A stretch of DNA of 64,000 nucleotides from Shigella phage ChubbyThor: the sequence record OL615013. One strand, 5' to 3'. This document shows, one piece after another, positions 12,265-23,360 of the stretch. The notes under the pieces are model-generated. The model saw nothing but the letters and a program-made list of their open reading frames with translations. It was not told where the DNA came from and did not search any database. Position numbers and translations under genes: made by a program. Within the stretch, counting starts at the first letter, position 1; each line of letters begins with the position of its first letter.

Positions 12265-12772
12265 TACTTTTCTCCAGTTCATAATCGCGCTCCACAACAT
12301 ATTGGTAGACACGCATCTTAATATAGTCGGCACCACCTGCTGAAGACAGCACCCTCCATCCACTACTGAGGGCATTCATCTTATATTGACCAACCCCCTC
12401 TTGAAAATAACTTTTAATCTGTTCCAGCTTTCGCCCACGATGATAATAAGAGATGAGTTCACCGATAACAATACAATCGGGATAATTTTTGTCAAGGGTG
12501 TCAATATTGCGGTGGACATAGACAGGCAACACTTCTTCATCGTCGATAGGGCTGTAGCACGGGTCTACGATGACCACCTGTAGGCCATACGACAATAAAT
12601 CCTTGACGCCCAGACGACAGAACTTATAATCTTCGTGCTTCATTGCCACCTGGAGAATATTCTCTTTCTTGGCATAATCGGACAGGAAGATAAAGAAGTC
12701 TGTGTTGGGATCGGGATATTGTATAGACAATTCTTTGCCTATTTCACTAAAACAAAATCCGCGCATTTTCAT
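12242..12772 (-). CDS. hypothetical protein
   Basis: ORF track 176 aa. Confidence 0.45.
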   Translation of the reverse strand: MKMRGFCFSEIGKELSIQYPDPNTDFFIFLSDYAKKENILQVAMKHEDYKFCRLGVKDLLSYGLQVVIVDPCYSPIDDEEVLPVYVHRNIDTLDKNYPDCIVIGELISYYHRGRKLEQIKSYFQEGVGQYKMNALSSGWRVLSSAGGADYIKMRVYQYVVERDYELEKSNAKRKTR

Positions 12773-12815
12773 TCCTCGTTATAATTACTCTTACAATATA
12801 CCGTGGAGATACATT

Positions 12816-13622
12816 ATGAATTTGCCATCATTGCCCAGAACAGAAAAGACATATAAAAGCGACTTTTGGCCTACTGTGATCAAATATCGCGCCTTTACTG
12901 CGGGGCAACAAACTTTATTACTTCAGGTGTCAGATCCGCAAACGCCGATTGAAGAACGCGCGGCCATGATGGAGAGCCTCTTCAGCGAATGTGTAAATGC
13001 AGGTGCGCCATTCAGCAAACTACCAATCGGTGTTGTCGAAGAAGTGTTCATCCGTATGCGCATGATCGCCATCGGCGAATTGATGAAGATTCGCTACAAG
13101 TGCAATAATCAGGTTGAAGAAACGATCGATCTGGGAGATGGCCAAGAAAAGCGCCAGATGGTTCCCTGTGAGCAGGAACTGACTCTGCCTATCCCGCTGA
13201 ACAATGTAAAATGCATTGCTCAGGACGGCTTCCAGGAGACGTTTGACCTGCCGGGTGGCTATCACCTCAAGATGCGCCAACCTTCCTTCTCGGACGCCAC
13301 GGCGCTGTCTGATGCTGTAAGTGTTGAGATGATGCTGGCCACCTTTATCGACTGCCTGTACGATGATGACGGTCAGGTGTGGAAGGTTGAGAATCCTGAA
13401 GAAATCGGGATCACTCCGGAAGAGGCTACCGAGCGCCGCCGTGTGAAAGAAGCGTTTGTTGAGTGGGTGAAGGATAACATCGAATCAGATGTCATCGACA
13501 GCATTACGAAGAACTTCTTCCACAAAATACCGCGCATCCACTACAAGAGTTCAATCAAGTGTCCGAAGTGTGGTAAGGAACACAAGATCGAATTCAATAG
13601 CATTAATGAAATTTTCATCTAA
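12816..13622 (+). CDS. hypothetical protein with C-terminal zinc ribbon (CPKCG)
   Basis: ORF track 12702..13622; likely ATG at 12816 (MNLPSLPRTEK); plus-strand island upstream of gp5. Confidence 0.45.
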   Translation: MNLPSLPRTEKTYKSDFWPTVIKYRAFTAGQQTLLLQVSDPQTPIEERAAMMESLFSECVNAGAPFSKLPIGVVEEVFIRMRMIAIGELMKIRYKCNNQVEETIDLGDGQEKRQMVPCEQELTLPIPLNNVKCIAQDGFQETFDLPGGYHLKMRQPSFSDATALSDAVSVEMMLATFIDCLYDDDGQVWKVENPEEIGITPEEATERRRVKEAFVEWVKDNIESDVIDSITKNFFHKIPRIHYKSSIKCPKCGKEHKIEFNSINEIFI

Positions 13623-13771
13623 TGTTTGAAACTGATTTACTATCCTACTTCGTGATGTGTGATGAATTGAAGTTACACGGCTATAGCATATTTGAAATCA
13701 ACGAGTCGATGCCGTGGCATCTTGACTTGTTAACCGAAGCCCTCAAGGTCAGGTTGTCTAAGAAACAGTAA
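13622..13771 (+). CDS. small ORF (49 aa), start overlapping upstream stop (TAATG)
   Basis: MFETDLLSYFVMCDELKLHGYSIFEINESMPWHLDLLTEALKVRLSKKQ; below ORF-track size cut-off; followed immediately by terminator. Confidence 0.3.
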   Translation: MFETDLLSYFVMCDELKLHGYSIFEINESMPWHLDLLTEALKVRLSKKQ

Positions 13772-13795
13772 TCCCGCTTCGGCGGGATTTTTATT
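13771..13795 (+). terminator. intrinsic terminator (ATCCCGCttcgGCGGGATTTTT)
   Basis: 7-bp GC stem, UUCG loop, T-run. Confidence 0.7.
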
Positions 13796-14090
13796 GGCTT
13801 AACTGTAAAACAGGTTAACGCGTGCTCTCTTTACCTGAAATTGTTATAATGGGCTTGTTCCTGAGTCATTTGTTGGGGATCGTCTATTTTGAATCAGATT
13901 GTCAGTAAAATACCATTTTTCAAGGAGTGTTCTGAGGTGTACAGTTATTGCCTCGCTCTTATGCCTCCATGGCATTGGAATGGTGCTGCCTGCATAAGGC
14001 GGTGTGATGAGCGAAGCGAATAGGATCGAATAACAAATAAAATGAACGGAAGCAGAGCTTCCTATAGTATATAAGGCAAAATCCGCTGCG

Positions 14091-14098
14091 CATAAATA
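14091..14098 (+). promoter_or_regulatory. late-promoter-like CATAAATA upstream of gp5
   Basis: 7/8 match to TATAAATA ~35 nt upstream of the 14133 start. Confidence 0.4.
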
Positions 14099-14132
14099 CC
14101 TTCAAATCCTTGTTTGACAACCGGAACTCAAT

Positions 14133-15743
14133 ATGTTAGACAATATGAGATGGTTTTATGGCACCGTTGAAGATGTCAACGATCCAGACCAAAACGGGCG
14201 CGTCGCCGTCCGCATCTATGGCGTCCACACTGATGACACCGTCCTCCTGCCTACGGACAAACTCCCATGGGCGAAGGTGCTGATGCCTGCTTCAAACGCC
14301 TCCTCTGCTGGTTTAGGTTGGTCTCCAACGGGTATCATTCCTGGCACTGAGGTCATGGGGTTCGCCCTTGACGAAGCATACCAGAACTTACGCATCACCT
14401 GGACTTGGCCTGGGGCAAATCCCACTGATGGAGCTGACACGAATCCGCTGGCTCTCGGACAGGTCGTTCAATCTGTAGAACGTCAGGCGTACAACGCTGT
14501 CACTGACGTTCCTGTGAAACAAGAAGACGAACCACAACCAGATCCACAACCACCTGTTGGCGGGTATGATCCTGAAAAATGGATGACCATCGCTCGTGGC
14601 GAGCTGGGTGTCAAGGAGTACGCCGGAAAGTTCAACAACAACCCGCGCATTATAGAATATCACAAGACAACCTCCCTTGGCGCTTCTGAAGATGAAGTGT
14701 CGTGGTGTGCGGCGTTCGTGGGCTGGGTTATGTTGCAGGCTGGATACACGTCTACGCGCTCCGCTCTTGCCCGATCTTACCTTACATGGGGTAGTGCACT
14801 GTCAGCACCACAATATGGTGCTATCGTAGTCTTCCGGCGCGGTAACAACCCTACATTTGGACACGTGGCGTTTGTACAGAAGTTCGACGCAAACTATGTC
14901 TGGTGTATCGGTGGCAACCAATCCGATTCAGTGAAGGTCAGCCGCTTCAGCCGTTCGTCAGTCCTGGGCTACCGCTGGCCTGGTCCGGCGAATACAGCTT
15001 CAGCCGCCCCAGCGCAACAGAACGGGAAATGGTCTGAGCCTATCCCTGATCGTACCCCAAAAGAGCAGGCAACTCCGGCTCCTACAGGGCGCGTACAGGA
15101 TATTGATAACACGGGCGAAACTATGGTTCCGGCAGCGGGTGGCTCCAAGTACCCGTACAACAACGTCATGGCATCCCGAGCAGGTCACATAATGGAGGTG
15201 GACGACACTCCTGGTGGTGAGCGTCTTCATTGGATGCACATGTCCGGTTCCTACAAACAGATGCTCCCGAACGGCGACGTCGTCAACAAGTCAGTGAAGG
15301 ATCATTATGACCTGACCATGTTTGACAAGCGCTATTATGTCGGCGGGGACCACAACCTGACGGTCAAAGGAACTGAAGTGCAGCGCAAGACTGGCGAGGT
15401 CTATCACCTTCACTCCAACAACTACTCCAACGTGGTTGCGGGTACAGCGCTGATGAAATTCAGTGACCTGGCTGAGTTGCAAGCACAGAATATTCTGCGC
15501 ATCATCTGCGAGACTCTGGAGGTCGGCGGGACGTTGAAGGTTCCTAAGATTCTGGCAACAGAGATCATCGCCGACAAACTGACGGTTGCTCAGACGATTA
15601 ATGGTAACATCATATATGCCGAAGGTGCTGGTCGCGCTTCTTCTCTGTCAGGTGCAACCCCTGCATCCCCTACGGGACCAGGTGAGATTGATATCAAGGC
15701 AGAATTAAAAGACAATGGTGGTAATTTCGGCACCGAAGAGTAA
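14133..15743 (+). CDS. 5: baseplate hub / tail-associated cell-puncturing protein gp5-like with Cys-His peptidase (CHAP/NlpC-P60-like) domain
   Basis: 536 aa; N-terminal WFYGTVEDVNDPDQNGRVAVRIYGVHTDD matches T4 gp5 OB-fold opening (WFVGVVEDVMDP...RVRVFGLHTDD); central SWCAAFVGWVM ... GHVAFV Cys/His pair instead of T4 lysozyme domain. Confidence 0.75.
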   Translation: MLDNMRWFYGTVEDVNDPDQNGRVAVRIYGVHTDDTVLLPTDKLPWAKVLMPASNASSAGLGWSPTGIIPGTEVMGFALDEAYQNLRITWTWPGANPTDGADTNPLALGQVVQSVERQAYNAVTDVPVKQEDEPQPDPQPPVGGYDPEKWMTIARGELGVKEYAGKFNNNPRIIEYHKTTSLGASEDEVSWCAAFVGWVMLQAGYTSTRSALARSYLTWGSALSAPQYGAIVVFRRGNNPTFGHVAFVQKFDANYVWCIGGNQSDSVKVSRFSRSSVLGYRWPGPANTASAAPAQQNGKWSEPIPDRTPKEQATPAPTGRVQDIDNTGETMVPAAGGSKYPYNNVMASRAGHIMEVDDTPGGERLHWMHMSGSYKQMLPNGDVVNKSVKDHYDLTMFDKRYYVGGDHNLTVKGTEVQRKTGEVYHLHSNNYSNVVAGTALMKFSDLAELQAQNILRIICETLEVGGTLKVPKILATEIIADKLTVAQTINGNIIYAEGAGRASSLSGATPASPTGPGEIDIKAELKDNGGNFGTEE

Positions 15744-15816
15744 GTTGGTATAAGTTTAGTGGCAGAGGGGCAGCATGCCTCTCTGCTCCTTATAGGCATC
15801 CTGAGAGGATCGCGAA

Positions 15817-16197
15817 ATGAAAGAGTACAAAGATGTCGATCTGAAGTTCGGCATGCACCCGGTGACCAAAGATGTCACCATGAAATCAGGCGTATACGCT
15901 GTCTTGCAATCTGTGCGGAATATTGTCATGTCTTCAGCCGGTGACTGGCCCACTTATCCTGGGATCGGCGCGGGGCTTTATGGGCTGCTGGGTGAAAACA
16001 CGACACCGACTATCCAGGTAGATGTGAAGAACAAAGTAGAGGACGCCATCGCCCTGTATGAACCCAGGGCAGAGGTAGAAGAAGTCACGGTGAGTCTGTC
16101 AGAGGATTACCACTCTCTGGGCGTGACCATCACATTCTATGTGGTCAACAATCCAGATCCAATAACAGACACCGTGTGGTTGAAAAGGACGAATTAG
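15817..16197 (+). CDS. 25: baseplate wedge protein gp25-like (GPW/gp25 family)
   Basis: 126 aa; RNIVMSSAGDWPTYPGIGAGLYGLL matches GPW/gp25 signature. Confidence 0.7.
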   Translation: MKEYKDVDLKFGMHPVTKDVTMKSGVYAVLQSVRNIVMSSAGDWPTYPGIGAGLYGLLGENTTPTIQVDVKNKVEDAIALYEPRAEVEEVTVSLSEDYHSLGVTITFYVVNNPDPITDTVWLKRTN

Positions 16198-16544
16198 AAT
16201 TTCGTCCTGAATGCCGGAGCCACGACTAACATGAAGTGGCTCAATAACCTGAACATCTCCTTACCGTTGAAGTGGTAGAGGATAATTATCGGTCTGACAC
16301 CAACTACCGAACCATCCAGCTTCTTGTTCAACACAAATCTGGAATCGACACTGACCTTCCCACTCTCTTCTTCTCCTTGTTTGTCGTAGACCACGCAACT
16401 TGTGACATAACCGATCTGAGATCCATCCTCAGACTGCAATGGTAGCATGTGCCCTTCAGACAACAGATGATGCAGGTTCTGGTATAAACCTTTGTCTGGT
16501 ATGGGGACTGCCAGCTGCATGCTCAGCTCTTTGTAATCTTGCAT
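16194..16544 (-). CDS. hypothetical protein
   Basis: ORF track 116 aa. Confidence 0.4.
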   Translation of the reverse strand: MQDYKELSMQLAVPIPDKGLYQNLHHLLSEGHMLPLQSEDGSQIGYVTSCVVYDKQGEEESGKVSVDSRFVLNKKLDGSVVGVRPIIILYHFNGKEMFRLLSHFMLVVAPAFRTKF

Positions 16545-20871: not shown

Positions 20872-21531
20872 TTATTGACTTACAAACTCTAACCACTCTG
20901 GGTCGGCTTTGGGATTCCACCCAGATTTAAATTTATTAATCATTGTGAAATGCGGAGTCGTCTTGTTTTTGAACCCAAACGCTTTCGCCATGAACGTGCA
21001 ACCTTTTTGGTTGCACAACCACCAATCATAATATTCGTCGGCGCGTTTCCATATATCCAAAGACTCTTTGGTGGCATGGTTACTTTCCCAAGGTTGTTTT
21101 ATCACGCAGATATTGTTTTCCTTCAAACGTTTAGACTGTATTTCCCGCAAATGAGGATACTTTACATGTGTCTGTTTCATTTGATCGGAACGAATTTTCC
21201 TCAAATTAGGGTTGTCTTTGTACATCTGTTTATTGGAATGAGAAAGTTTTCTCCGCAACCAACCGAATAATTTGTTACAAGATCTACCGGAGAATTCATT
21301 GTTTACGCACATAGCATTAGCTGCAAATGCTAATTTGAAATTTTTGGGATATATTTTGACTAACAATTGATGTGCCAAATAATGTTCTTCTGGTGTCAAC
21401 TCCACCAGATTATGTTTGTCATCTTTCCCTCCCATACATCTAGGGATAATATGGTGGGTTTCAGAATAACCAACCAATGAACGGGTCTTGGCTCTTTGTA
21501 TCAGAGAGTCATAGATATTTTGATAATTCAT
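20872..21531 (-). mobile_element. free-standing HNH homing endonuclease gene
   Basis: 219 aa; ETHHIIPRCMGG...HN...EEHYLAH HNH motif; AT-richer than flanks; sits between nrdA and phoH. Confidence 0.7.
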
Positions 21532-22547: not shown

Positions 22548-23360
22548 TTAACTGAAACTCTTGTATGCAGCAGCGAGCTTCGTGTCGTACTGGTTCTTGG
22601 CATACGCCGGACCATTATAGCGCCGCGCAAACTCAGCCCAGTTCTTGTCCTTCAGAGCCTGCCAGAGCTTGGCGTCGGCCTTGATGAACTTCACGAATGC
22701 CATCAGATGAGCACGTTCGCCCGTCAAGAAGTCATTGAACATCTCCTTGGCGTTGGCGTACCCACAGACCTGGCAGTTGAAGCCCATGATCTGGAAGAGG
22801 CCGTAAGAGGCGCTCTCGTACGCACAATCCTCGTCGATGTTAATGGCTGCATGGAGTCGATCCAACTCCGCGTCGCCGCCCGTGTACCCGCCTGCCACTG
22901 GACTGACAAGGGTTGGATACATTTGACCAGCCGCGTTCGCCCGAGCCTGCCCGAACTTCGCCATCATCTTCTTGTACATGATGTGACGCTCAAACAACGT
23001 CTTGATCTTACCAGACTTGGTGAAGCCAGTGCCACGGGATTCAACCTGATTGACTGCCTTCACAGAGGCGAGGTCAACTCCCAGCTGGTTGGCTGCGTCG
23101 ATAAGGTCAGCCTCAGTCAGGTGATCCTGATGGGCGTCTCCGGCGTTGCGAATAGCATAGGAGGTCTTTGGACCCACAATACCATCAATGACAAGCCCCG
23201 CACCCGCCTGAACAGTCTTGACAGCGTTCTCTGTTGCCTTACCAAAGATGCCGTCAGCGACGAGGGTGAAGCCGATTTTGTTGAGGCTCTGCTGAAGTGA
23301 TTTGACTTCAGTGCCACGGTTGCCAAGTTTTAGAATGGCCATAAGAAAATACCTCCGCAA
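22548..23360 (-). CDS. endolysin: two N-terminal peptidoglycan-binding repeats plus C-terminal N-acetylmuramidase-like domain
   Basis: 270 aa; repeats GFTLVADGIFGKATENAVKTVQ / GLVIDGIVGPKTSYAIRNAG; catalytic region GLFQIMGFN. Confidence 0.75.
   Translation of the reverse strand: MRRYFLMAILKLGNRGTEVKSLQQSLNKIGFTLVADGIFGKATENAVKTVQAGAGLVIDGIVGPKTSYAIRNAGDAHQDHLTEADLIDAANQLGVDLASVKAVNQVESRGTGFTKSGKIKTLFERHIMYKKMMAKFGQARANAAGQMYPTLVSPVAGGYTGGDAELDRLHAAINIDEDCAYESASYGLFQIMGFNCQVCGYANAKEMFNDFLTGERAHLMAFVKFIKADAKLWQALKDKNWAEFARRYNGPAYAKNQYDTKLAAAYKSFS

Follow-up and report, generated by a model that had tools for sequence, protein, structure and literature searches.

A gp5-type spike protein with a predicted NlpC/P60-CHAP hydrolase domain in place of lysozyme in an Ag3-like Shigella phage

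Genes and signals at the gp5 locus

The DNA analysed here, a stretch of 64,000 nucleotides (the window), is 98.4% identical at the nucleotide level to Shigella phage Ag3, a ViI-like phage of the genus Agtrevirus (Ackermannviridae). It encodes a gp5-type central spike or baseplate hub protein (Table 1) that is 100% identical to gp5 of Ag3 and is present at full length in at least 279 database phages. The next gene encodes gp25, which matches the Pfam family GPW_gp25 (PF04965; E = 1.6e-8, 34.7 bits against a cutoff of 27.2, aa 28-113), phrog_261 (E = 8e-33) and phrog_43 (E = 2e-24), and shares 34% identity with T4-type gp25 in a tblastn comparison. A sequence-only reading of the window had called both open reading frames with the limits, strand and lengths given in Table 1, had placed gp25 directly after gp5 and had described this order as unlike that of T4; all three statements hold. 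The corresponding order in RB14 is 53-5-5.1-5.4-6-7, and the distance from gp5 to gp25 is about 35 kb in both AV119 and ZZ1.

Upstream of gp5, in a separate transcription unit, lies a gp26-like gene with a 49-aa ORF on its 3' side, for which a Pfam search at E <= 10 returned nothing. This gp26/orf83 unit is closed by a hairpin terminator, and about 340 nt of non-coding DNA separate the hairpin from gp5. An Rfam scan of positions 13600-16400 gave sub-threshold matches only, over the terminator hairpin; a regulatory RNA in the 340-nt gap was considered and rejected, the Rfam matches there being sub-threshold. About 36 nt before the gp5 ATG stands the late-promoter-like motif CATAAATA, which differs by one mismatch from the T4 late promoter TATAAATA and, judged from its sequence, may function as a promoter. 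In the Ag3 genome paper (PMC3121705), Porf084 is given as a putative late promoter ahead of gp5. It seems that gp5 and gp25 are transcribed together as one late unit of two genes.

The order gp26 - small ORF - gp5 - gp25 is also found in Kuttervirus and Taipeivirus. The adjacency of gp5 and gp25 is a clade-wide synteny trait and no special feature of this locus. It was also considered as a functional fusion or a novel module, a reading that was rejected because the pair simply follows the conserved clade order and because two other genes separate gp5 from gp25 in Vibrio phage K397.

Table 1. Positions in the window of the features discussed in the text
Feature	Position	Strand	Basis
gp26-like baseplate hub gene, 270 aa	12810..13622	+	Pfam T4_baseplate E = 1e-45, aa 16-269; phrog_150 E = 4e-55
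Bidirectional GC-rich hairpin terminator closing the gp26/orf83 unit	13770..13789	.	8-bp stem, 5 GC pairs, then TTTATT
Putative promoter CATAAATA	14090..14097	+	read from sequence
gp5-type central spike / baseplate hub protein, 536 aa	14133..15743	+	
N-terminal OB-fold domain, aa 1-100	14133..14432	+	Pfam Gp5_OB; phmmer to T4 gp5
Linker 1, aa 101-142	14433..14558	+	composition
Predicted TIGR02594 / CHAP (NlpC-P60 superfamily) peptidoglycan-hydrolase domain, aa 143-288	14559..14996	+	
Cys192 codon, predicted catalytic nucleophile (SWC motif)	14706..14708	+	invariant in 18- and 120-sequence alignments
His244 codon, predicted catalytic base (GHV motif)	14862..14864	+	invariant in 18- and 120-sequence alignments
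Asn262-Gln263 codons (GGNQ motif), candidate third polar triad residue	14916..14921	+	spacing
Linker 2, aa 289-336	14997..15140	+	composition; alignment with T4-type gp5
gp5C-like region, aa 337-440	15141..15452	+	phmmer; identity to K397
C-terminal 96 aa (aa 441-536) and stop codon	15453..15743	+	unmatched in T4 beta-helix repeats and Pfam
gp25 baseplate wedge / sheath-initiator protein, 126 aa	15817..16197	+	Pfam GPW_gp25, phrogs
Modular endolysin, PG_binding_1 + N-acetylmuramidase	22548..23360	-	Muramidase PF11860 E = 7e-59; PG_binding_1 E = 9e-15

Domains of the spike protein

Both ends of the enzyme domain are flanked by segments recognizable from T4 gp5. The N-terminal domain matches Gp5_OB (E = 3.5e-13, 50.4 bits against a cutoff of 25), and the T4 gp5 chains 1pdl and 1k28 align to aa 3-94 with a domain E of 6e-15 (phmmer). 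In T4 gp5, the OB domain is the part that docks onto the gp27 hub. It is followed by linker 1, an acidic segment with 17% Pro (…KQEDEPQPDPQPPVGG) that is missing from the enzyme-free K397 gp5 in the alignment. Linker 2, on the far side of the enzyme domain, is rich in Pro, Ala and Thr and matches in position the linker of T4 gp5 that is cleaved during assembly, as aligned with T4-type gp5; in T4 the active site is occluded by that linker. The gp5C-like region comprises a conserved SKYPYNN…GHIMEVDDTPGGERLHW block and the start of a beta-helix; residues 337-433 match T4 gp5 residues 385-478 (phmmer, domain E = 1e-14), and the region is 47% identical to residues 145-220 of K397 gp5.

The C-terminal 96 aa, presumed to be the spike tip, are the least conserved part of gp5, with 69% identity across Agtrevirus, Taipeivirus and Kuttervirus. 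A Pfam search with the C-terminal 138 aa returned nothing at E <= 10, and the Pfam beta-helix repeats Gp5_C and Gp5_trimer_C were not detected in gp5, though Gp5_C was detected in K397. A single-sequence AlphaFold model of the full-length protein had a mean pLDDT of 33 and was unusable.

The sequence-only reading had proposed that gp5 keeps its N-terminal OB fold and that its central region carries a Cys/His pair in a CHAP/NlpC-P60-like context rather than a T4-lysozyme fold. The peptides that it quoted are present (WFYGTV at aa 7, RVAVRIYGVH at aa 23, SWCAAF at aa 190 and GHVAFV at aa 243), the OB fold is borne out by the Gp5_OB match, and its proposal for the central region agrees with both profile searches and structure prediction. 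Only aa 1-94 and 337-433 of the protein can be aligned with T4 gp5 structures, and T4 gp5 residues from about 100 to 384, the lysozyme region, have no counterpart in it in the phmmer comparison with these structures. The middle domain matches TIGR02594 over its full length (E = 5.3e-38, 130.3 bits against a curated cutoff of 70.55, profile positions 2-132 of 132) and CHAP (PF05257; E = 8.4e-11, 42.7 bits against a cutoff of 26), and no lysozyme domain was matched in Pfam or NCBIfam.

Searches of the PDB by sequence, with the domain as a single sequence or as a 120-sequence profile, gave marginal matches (E = 0.1-0.8), so that a comparison of folds was needed. The domain model has a pLDDT of 95.7 and a pTM of 0.91. 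Its best Foldseek matches are NlpC/P60 and CHAP enzymes, with no fold other than NlpC/P60-CHAP among them; the best structural scores belong to the NlpC/P60 DL-endopeptidases Acd24020, LytE and CwlO and to a Thermus D,L-endopeptidase. The model thus predicts a papain-like alpha+beta fold for the middle domain. Given this fold and the lack of a lysozyme match, the widespread database label 'tail lysozyme' is a misnomer for the gp5 protein; the label has also been carried over to small CHAP lysins unrelated to it, ICP1 gp207 among them. The term 'peptidase' is suggested by the family matches and the model at the level of the fold; CHAP/NlpC-P60 enzymes may also be MurNAc-L-Ala amidases.

The Cys/His pair singled out earlier, C192 and H244, is the invariant pair of the TIGR02594 family. 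Cys192 aligns with the Cys of the DCSSF motif of the DL-endopeptidase CwlO, and His244 with the GHV found both in CwlO and in the lytic domain of the hub of phage 812, in each case within marginal sequence matches. Because matches to solved CHAP/NlpC-P60 structures are weak, the equivalence of the triad at residue level rests on motif alignment and family invariance. N262, invariant in 120 homologues, and Q263, conserved in at least 90% of them, lie 18-19 residues past His244, a spacing that makes them candidates for the third triad residue. Their distance from His244 resembles that between His117 and Glu134 of LysK CHAPK.

The replacement of lysozyme by a CHAP domain in gp5 is already known: it was published in 2011 for the CBA120 orthologue, which is without lysozyme and whose aa 150-282 form a CHAP/TIGR02594 domain (Kutter et al. 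2011, PMC3184105), and it is common to hundreds of sequenced relatives. As the phage itself has also been sequenced and published, the substitution carries little weight as a discovery. What is added here to the 2011 work is the variable middle slot of gp5, the separate muramidase endolysin and the failure to detect a PAAR tip gene in the window, where a motif regex found none and where K397 PAAR and RB14 gp5.4, used as tblastn and phmmer queries, gave a best E of 1.5. In the literature searched, neither biochemical or structural work on an Ackermannviridae spike nor an enzymatic assay of gp5 from Ag3 or any orthologue was found, an absence that is no proof.

Role of the enzyme domain

The favoured reading, with a probability of about 0.82, is that gp5 is the central spike with which a ViI-like myovirus (Ackermannviridae) punctures the cell, and that in this spike a Cys-His wall hydrolase replaces the lysozyme. 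Mass spectrometry of LIMEstone1 virions has revealed the orthologues of both gp5 and gp25, one Vi01-like virion yielded a 'tail associated lysozyme', and the ViI gp5 orthologue was seen in proteomics (cited in Kutter et al. 2011, PMC3184105). On the model of T4 gp5, three copies would trimerise, with their N-terminal OB domains beneath the gp27 hub where the tail tube ends and their C-terminal parts intertwined into a needle, around the shaft of which the three enzyme domains would be held on flexible Pro-rich linkers. Sheath contraction would drive the needle through the outer membrane, and the enzyme domains would then open the peptidoglycan locally, allowing the tube to reach the inner membrane. 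At this step a papain-like Cys-His hydrolase of the TIGR02594 branch would cut the wall peptide, whereas the GH24 lysozyme of T4 cuts the glycan strand. The target bond is most likely gamma-D-Glu-meso-DAP, by analogy with the closest structural neighbours.

An active domain might instead be an N-acetylmuramoyl-L-alanine amidase or an endopeptidase of the mDAP-D-Ala cross-link, a possibility that deserves some weight though it is the less likely one. Pfam classes CHAP as 'amidohydrolase/peptidase', and in SD25, a Vibrio relative, the corresponding slot of gp5 is occupied by a genuine Amidase_2, so an amidase is clearly workable in that position. The best structural scores, which go to DL-endopeptidases, and the gamma-D,L-glutamate specificity that Kutter et al. 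(PMC3184105) assigned from family membership both speak for the gamma-D-Glu-mDAP bond, but neither is decisive. It is considerably harder to believe that the domain is an inactive remnant, serving as a structural or peptidoglycan-binding collar while penetration is purely mechanical. The gp5 of K397 consists of OB domain and beta-helix only, aligning to Ag3 aa 6 to about 100 and 338-413, so that an enzyme is not obligatory for such tails. Degenerate enzyme domains, however, normally lose their catalytic residues, and here the catalytic-motif residues Cys, His and Asn (C192, H244 and N262) do not vary among 120 homologues, nor among the Agtrevirus, Taipeivirus and Kuttervirus orthologues. The CHAP block is, moreover, the best-conserved part of gp5, at 90% identity in the three genera against 72% for the OB domain.

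A main role for the enzyme in lysis or lysis-from-without as infection ends, and not in entry, is very improbable. This role is suggested by the report that no endolysin, and indeed no holin or lysis enzyme, was identified in CBA120 (Kutter et al. 2011, PMC3184105), and free-standing TIGR02594 proteins do serve as endolysins. The window, however, holds a typical endolysin of PG_binding_1 and muramidase type, a gene also annotated in Vi01-like phages, and the gp5 enzyme is therefore not the sole wall hydrolase of the phage. In addition, gp5 orthologues are virion proteins, and the domain is embedded between spike domains in a gene that lies downstream of a late-promoter-like motif and next to gp25.

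As to the origin of the spike-borne hydrolase, the domain is 50-58% identical to free-standing TIGR02594 proteins of 140-220 aa, some of which also carry PG_binding_1, SH3 or LysM, and 40% identical to ICP1 gp207, a homologue of which, Lysqdvp001, has been described as an endolysin. Elsewhere the family occurs as a putative endolysin adjoining a holin and as a VgrG-linked T6SS effector. The gp5 enzyme domain looks like a captured copy of such a free-standing small lysin module. Across relatives, the middle slot of gp5 holds CHAP, Amidase_2, nothing or lysozyme. By comparison with the 'evolved' VgrG spikes of T6SS, this may be a general swappable cargo slot, which Ackermannviridae and their Vibrio relatives fill with a hydrolase suited to the host. 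A cut in the Pro/Ala linker may further set the Ag3 peptidase free in the periplasm, where, in the manner of a Tae-type effector of T6SS, it could attack a less expected bond, such as the cross-link or the Lpp-peptidoglycan attachment. Taken jointly, the cargo slot and the freed peptidase make an unlikely proposal. If it is true, the Ag3 protein would be the first entry enzyme of the endopeptidase type to be demonstrated in a tailed phage of Gram-negative bacteria; according to a 2017 review, phi6 P5 is the only Gram-negative phage entry enzyme with demonstrated endopeptidase activity. A muropeptide assay on this abundant and easily grown phage family would fill that gap, and the gp5 proteins with CHAP, Amidase_2, no enzyme or lysozyme form a natural series that bears on the need of a contractile tail for a wall enzyme and on when that need arises.

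Comparison with known systems

The gp5 proteins of CBA120 (537 aa), ViI, LIMEstone1 and other Ackermannviridae have the same OB-CHAP-gp5C architecture at 85-100% identity; there is no difference of substance from these orthologues, and the copy in the window is the Ag3 (Agtrevirus) allele. With T4 gp5 (PDB 1K28, 1PDL, 5IV5) the protein shares a homologous OB domain and beta-helix start (each with a domain E of about 1e-14), an enzyme domain held on linkers between the two and, presumably, the role of a trimeric needle with local wall digestion. It differs in its enzyme, a predicted Cys-His NlpC/P60-CHAP hydrolase in Ag3 and a GH24 lysozyme in T4. The T4 gp5 enzyme is a relative of that phage's exit lysozyme and is reported, from mutants, to be dispensable under laboratory conditions; the Ag3 gp5 enzyme is unrelated to the endolysin of its own phage. 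The Ag3 protein is also without detected Gp5_C repeats, its last 96 aa being unrelated to T4 gp5, and no gp5.4 PAAR gene is detectable within the window. The neighbours of gp5 are gp26 and gp25 in the window but 53, 5.1, 5.4 and 6 in the T4 type.

Among contractile machines, hub proteins with lytic domains are also known from the diffocin Hub-Hydrolase CD1368 (PDB 8V3W) and from Staphylococcus phage 812/K (9EUF, 9EUM); these carriers, however, are not of the gp5 type, their targets are Gram-positive and identity is only about 19%. The same catalytic domain, at 40-58% identity and with the same invariant residues, is found in the free-standing TIGR02594 proteins (ICP1 gp207/Lysqdvp001 and VgrG-linked T6SS effectors), whose known or predicted substrate is Gram-negative peptidoglycan. 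Those proteins are small and soluble (140-240 aa), whereas the Ag3 domain sits as an insertion within a structural protein, the spike.

Domain organization and fold of gp5

As the sequence-only reading had proposed, gp5 keeps the N-terminal OB fold (Pfam Gp5_OB at residues 35-97, E = 3.5e-13) and carries a CHAP/NlpC-P60-like domain rather than a T4 lysozyme (Pfam CHAP at residues 187-262, E = 8.4e-11). The TIGR02594 family is matched over its full length at residues 150-282, with 130.3 bits (NCBIfam cutoff, 70.55 bits). Among solved structures, the chains of T4-type gp5 match residues 1-94 and 337-433 only, and nothing in gp5 corresponds to the ~170-residue T4 lysozyme domain in these alignments. 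Both open reading frames, and all motifs quoted in that reading, are where it placed them.

Features of the gp5 region and of the endolysin gene (nucleotide positions in the window; aa, gp5 residues)
Feature	Position	Strand	Details
gp26	12810-13622		upstream of gp5
Strong hairpin terminator	13770-13789		ends the unit of gp26 and the 49-codon ORF
gp5 ORF	14133..15743	+	536 aa
OB domain	aa 1-100		Pfam Gp5_OB, T4-type gp5 alignment
Linker 1, Pro/acidic	aa 101-142		composition, 17% Pro
CHAP/TIGR02594 domain	aa 143-288		Pfam, NCBIfam
Linker 2, Pro/Ala/Thr	aa 289-336		composition
Conserved 'SKYPYNN…GHIMEVDDTPGGERLHW' block and beta-helix start	aa 337-440		
C-terminal tail	aa 441-536		without any match
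gp25	15817..16197	+	126 aa; Pfam GPW_gp25, E = 1.6e-8
Modular endolysin	22548-23360	-	PG_binding_1 and N-acetylmuramidase PF11860 (E = 7e-59 for the latter)

The CHAP domain, modelled with 119 homologues, reached a pLDDT of 95.7 and a pTM of 0.91; a single-sequence model of whole gp5 was unusable (pLDDT 33). The top Foldseek matches of the domain model in the PDB are exclusively NlpC/P60 and CHAP enzymes (Acd24020, MepS and the CHAP domains of LysGH15 and LysK), with no lysozyme among the PDB matches. The proposed Cys/His pair corresponds to Cys192 (SWC) and His244 (GHV), which are invariant, together with Asn262 (GGNQ), in 120 homologues; the Cys and His motifs also align, in a weak profile match, with those of the DL-endopeptidase CwlO. 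Conservation in gp5 is highest in the CHAP block, which is 90% identical across Agtrevirus, Taipeivirus and Kuttervirus orthologues; the OB domain reaches 72% and the C-terminal tail 69%. The invariant motifs and this conservation argue for a predicted active enzyme under selection. As far as fold and motifs go, the profile searches and structure prediction give neither a lysozyme nor a non-catalytic fold. The original observation is confirmed, far beyond chance, and its interpretation is supported.

Mass spectrometry identifies orthologues of gp5 as virion proteins. If it works like its T4 homologue, gp5 would trimerise, its OB domains docking under gp27 and its C-terminal parts forming the needle, with three enzyme domains tethered by flexible linkers; once the sheath has contracted, the enzyme would make a local opening in the murein. 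Judging by the fold neighbours, the most likely activity is that of an endopeptidase cutting the gamma-D-Glu-mDAP bond, which occurs in enterobacterial peptidoglycan. An amidase or DD-endopeptidase is possible, as MepS and Tae/Tse are among the fold neighbours and an Amidase_2 domain occupies the same gp5 slot in Vibrio phage SD25.

Distribution and origin of the enzyme module

Megablast of positions 12700-16300 matched 266 phage records, nearly all from ViI-like phages of Salmonella, Klebsiella, Escherichia, Dickeya and Shigella. Identity to Shigella phage Ag3 (phiSboM-AG3; Agtrevirus, Ackermannviridae) is 98.4% over the full length, and Ag3 orf00084 is 100% identical to the 536-aa protein. 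In their 'Baseplate Lysozyme' section, Kutter et al. (2011; PMC3184105) described a 537-aa gp5 homologue in phage CBA120 from which the usual lysozyme is missing; a putative CHAP domain occupies its residues 150-282 (TIGR02594 family, NlpC/P60 superfamily), flanked by the two regions present in T4 gp5. The present finding duplicates theirs, and at least one GenBank record (phage A221) labels the orthologue 'cell wall-associated hydrolase'. The CHAP-bearing gp5 is already known and common to hundreds of sequenced phages.

The gp5 of the related Vibrio phage K397 (L007 3477-4367; 296 aa, Gp5_OB and Gp5_C repeats) has no detectable enzyme domain and aligns with Ag3 gp5 only on either side of the linker-CHAP-linker block (residues 6-~100 and 338-413), so the block behaves as a clean insertion. 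The homologue in Vibrio phage SUMAE, also a relative (L006 3498-4589; 363 aa, OB only by Pfam) likewise has no detectable enzyme domain. That of Vibrio phage vB_VpaS_SD25 (Ackermannviridae; L003 4001-7051; 1016 aa, Gp5_OB) has Amidase_2 where Ag3 has CHAP, another way of filling this slot, and ends in a Peptidase_S74 intramolecular-chaperone domain.

The CHAP domain has its closest relatives (50-58% identity) in free-standing proteins of 140-220 aa, which number in the hundreds, are labelled TIGR02594 where named at all, and in some cases carry PG_binding_1, SH3 or LysM domains. Proteins of this kind adjoin holins in Pseudomonas phages, where the annotation is putative endolysin (PMC5418858); those in Stenotrophomonas are annotated as type VI effectors linked to VgrG (PMC13055248). 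ICP1 gp207 (PG_binding_1 and CHAP) shares 40% identity with the Ag3 domain, and its homologue Lysqdvp001 was described as a modular endolysin (PMC6463129). The occurrence of this domain in free-standing endolysin- or effector-annotated proteins suggests that the spike has captured a portable wall-hydrolase module. The labels of ICP1 gp207 (L002 3752-4468) and of two Pseudomonas phage matches (H68, H70) look transferred from Ackermannviridae gp5, seemingly via the shared CHAP domain; gp207 is without the OB or beta-helix part and lies among nrd/PhoH genes.

Expression, gene order and the endolysin

A 49-codon ORF lies alongside gp26 upstream of gp5. The unusually long non-coding gap that follows their terminator (13790-14132, ~340 nt) holds an extended -10-like TTGTTATAATGGG at ~13840 and a minus-strand hairpin at 14048-14062, and no Rfam family at threshold. 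It also contains a T4-late-promoter-like CATAAATA 36 nt 5' of the gp5 ATG; in the Ag3 genome paper, too, gp5 is assigned a putative late promoter. Given this motif, the 73 nt between the gp5 stop and the gp25 start, and the terminator annotated at the end of gp25 in the Ag3 record, gp5 and gp25 look like a two-gene late unit. The Ag3 record gives gp26 as 218 aa (equivalent to 12966-13622); its start codon is probably called ~52 codons too late, because Pfam T4_baseplate covers residues 16-269 of the 270-aa ORF from ATG 12810, and the annotated length in Kuttervirus and Taipeivirus records is 267 aa.

Within the 64-kb window (1-64000), no gp5.4/PAAR spike-tip homologue was found (best tblastn E = 1.5); the unmatched C-terminal 96 residues of gp5 might serve as the tip instead. 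A PAAR gene lies between gp5 and gp25 in K397 (L007 4879-5178). Salmonella phages, the bulk of Ackermannviridae records, were absent from the top organism tallies of a database-wide PAAR search.

The endolysin gene adjoins PhoH, and a 219-aa ORF without a Pfam match (20872-21531, minus strand) lies between nrdA and PhoH. PhoH lies ~420 nt away from where the Ag3 record, in which a homing endonuclease adjoins it, would place it; the window therefore differs from Ag3 hereabouts by an indel or mobile gene.

The immediate succession of gp5 and gp25 is, as claimed, not the T4 arrangement: the order is 53-5-5.1-5.4-6-7 in T4-type RB14, ~35 kb separate the two genes in AV119 and ZZ1, and gp25 does not follow gp5 in cyanophage S-RIM2. 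Kuttervirus BSP101 and Taipeivirus FKP10 share the window's order (gp26, small ORF, gp5, gp25), whereas in K397 two genes stand between gp5 and gp25 (gp26, gp5, hypothetical, PAAR, gp25). The adjacency is a clade-wide synteny of no evident special meaning. With a separate endolysin present, the gp5 enzyme would not be the lysis enzyme; none was identified in CBA120 in 2011 (PMC3184105). The gp5 enzyme and the endolysin are unrelated here, whereas T4 uses related enzymes for entry and exit.
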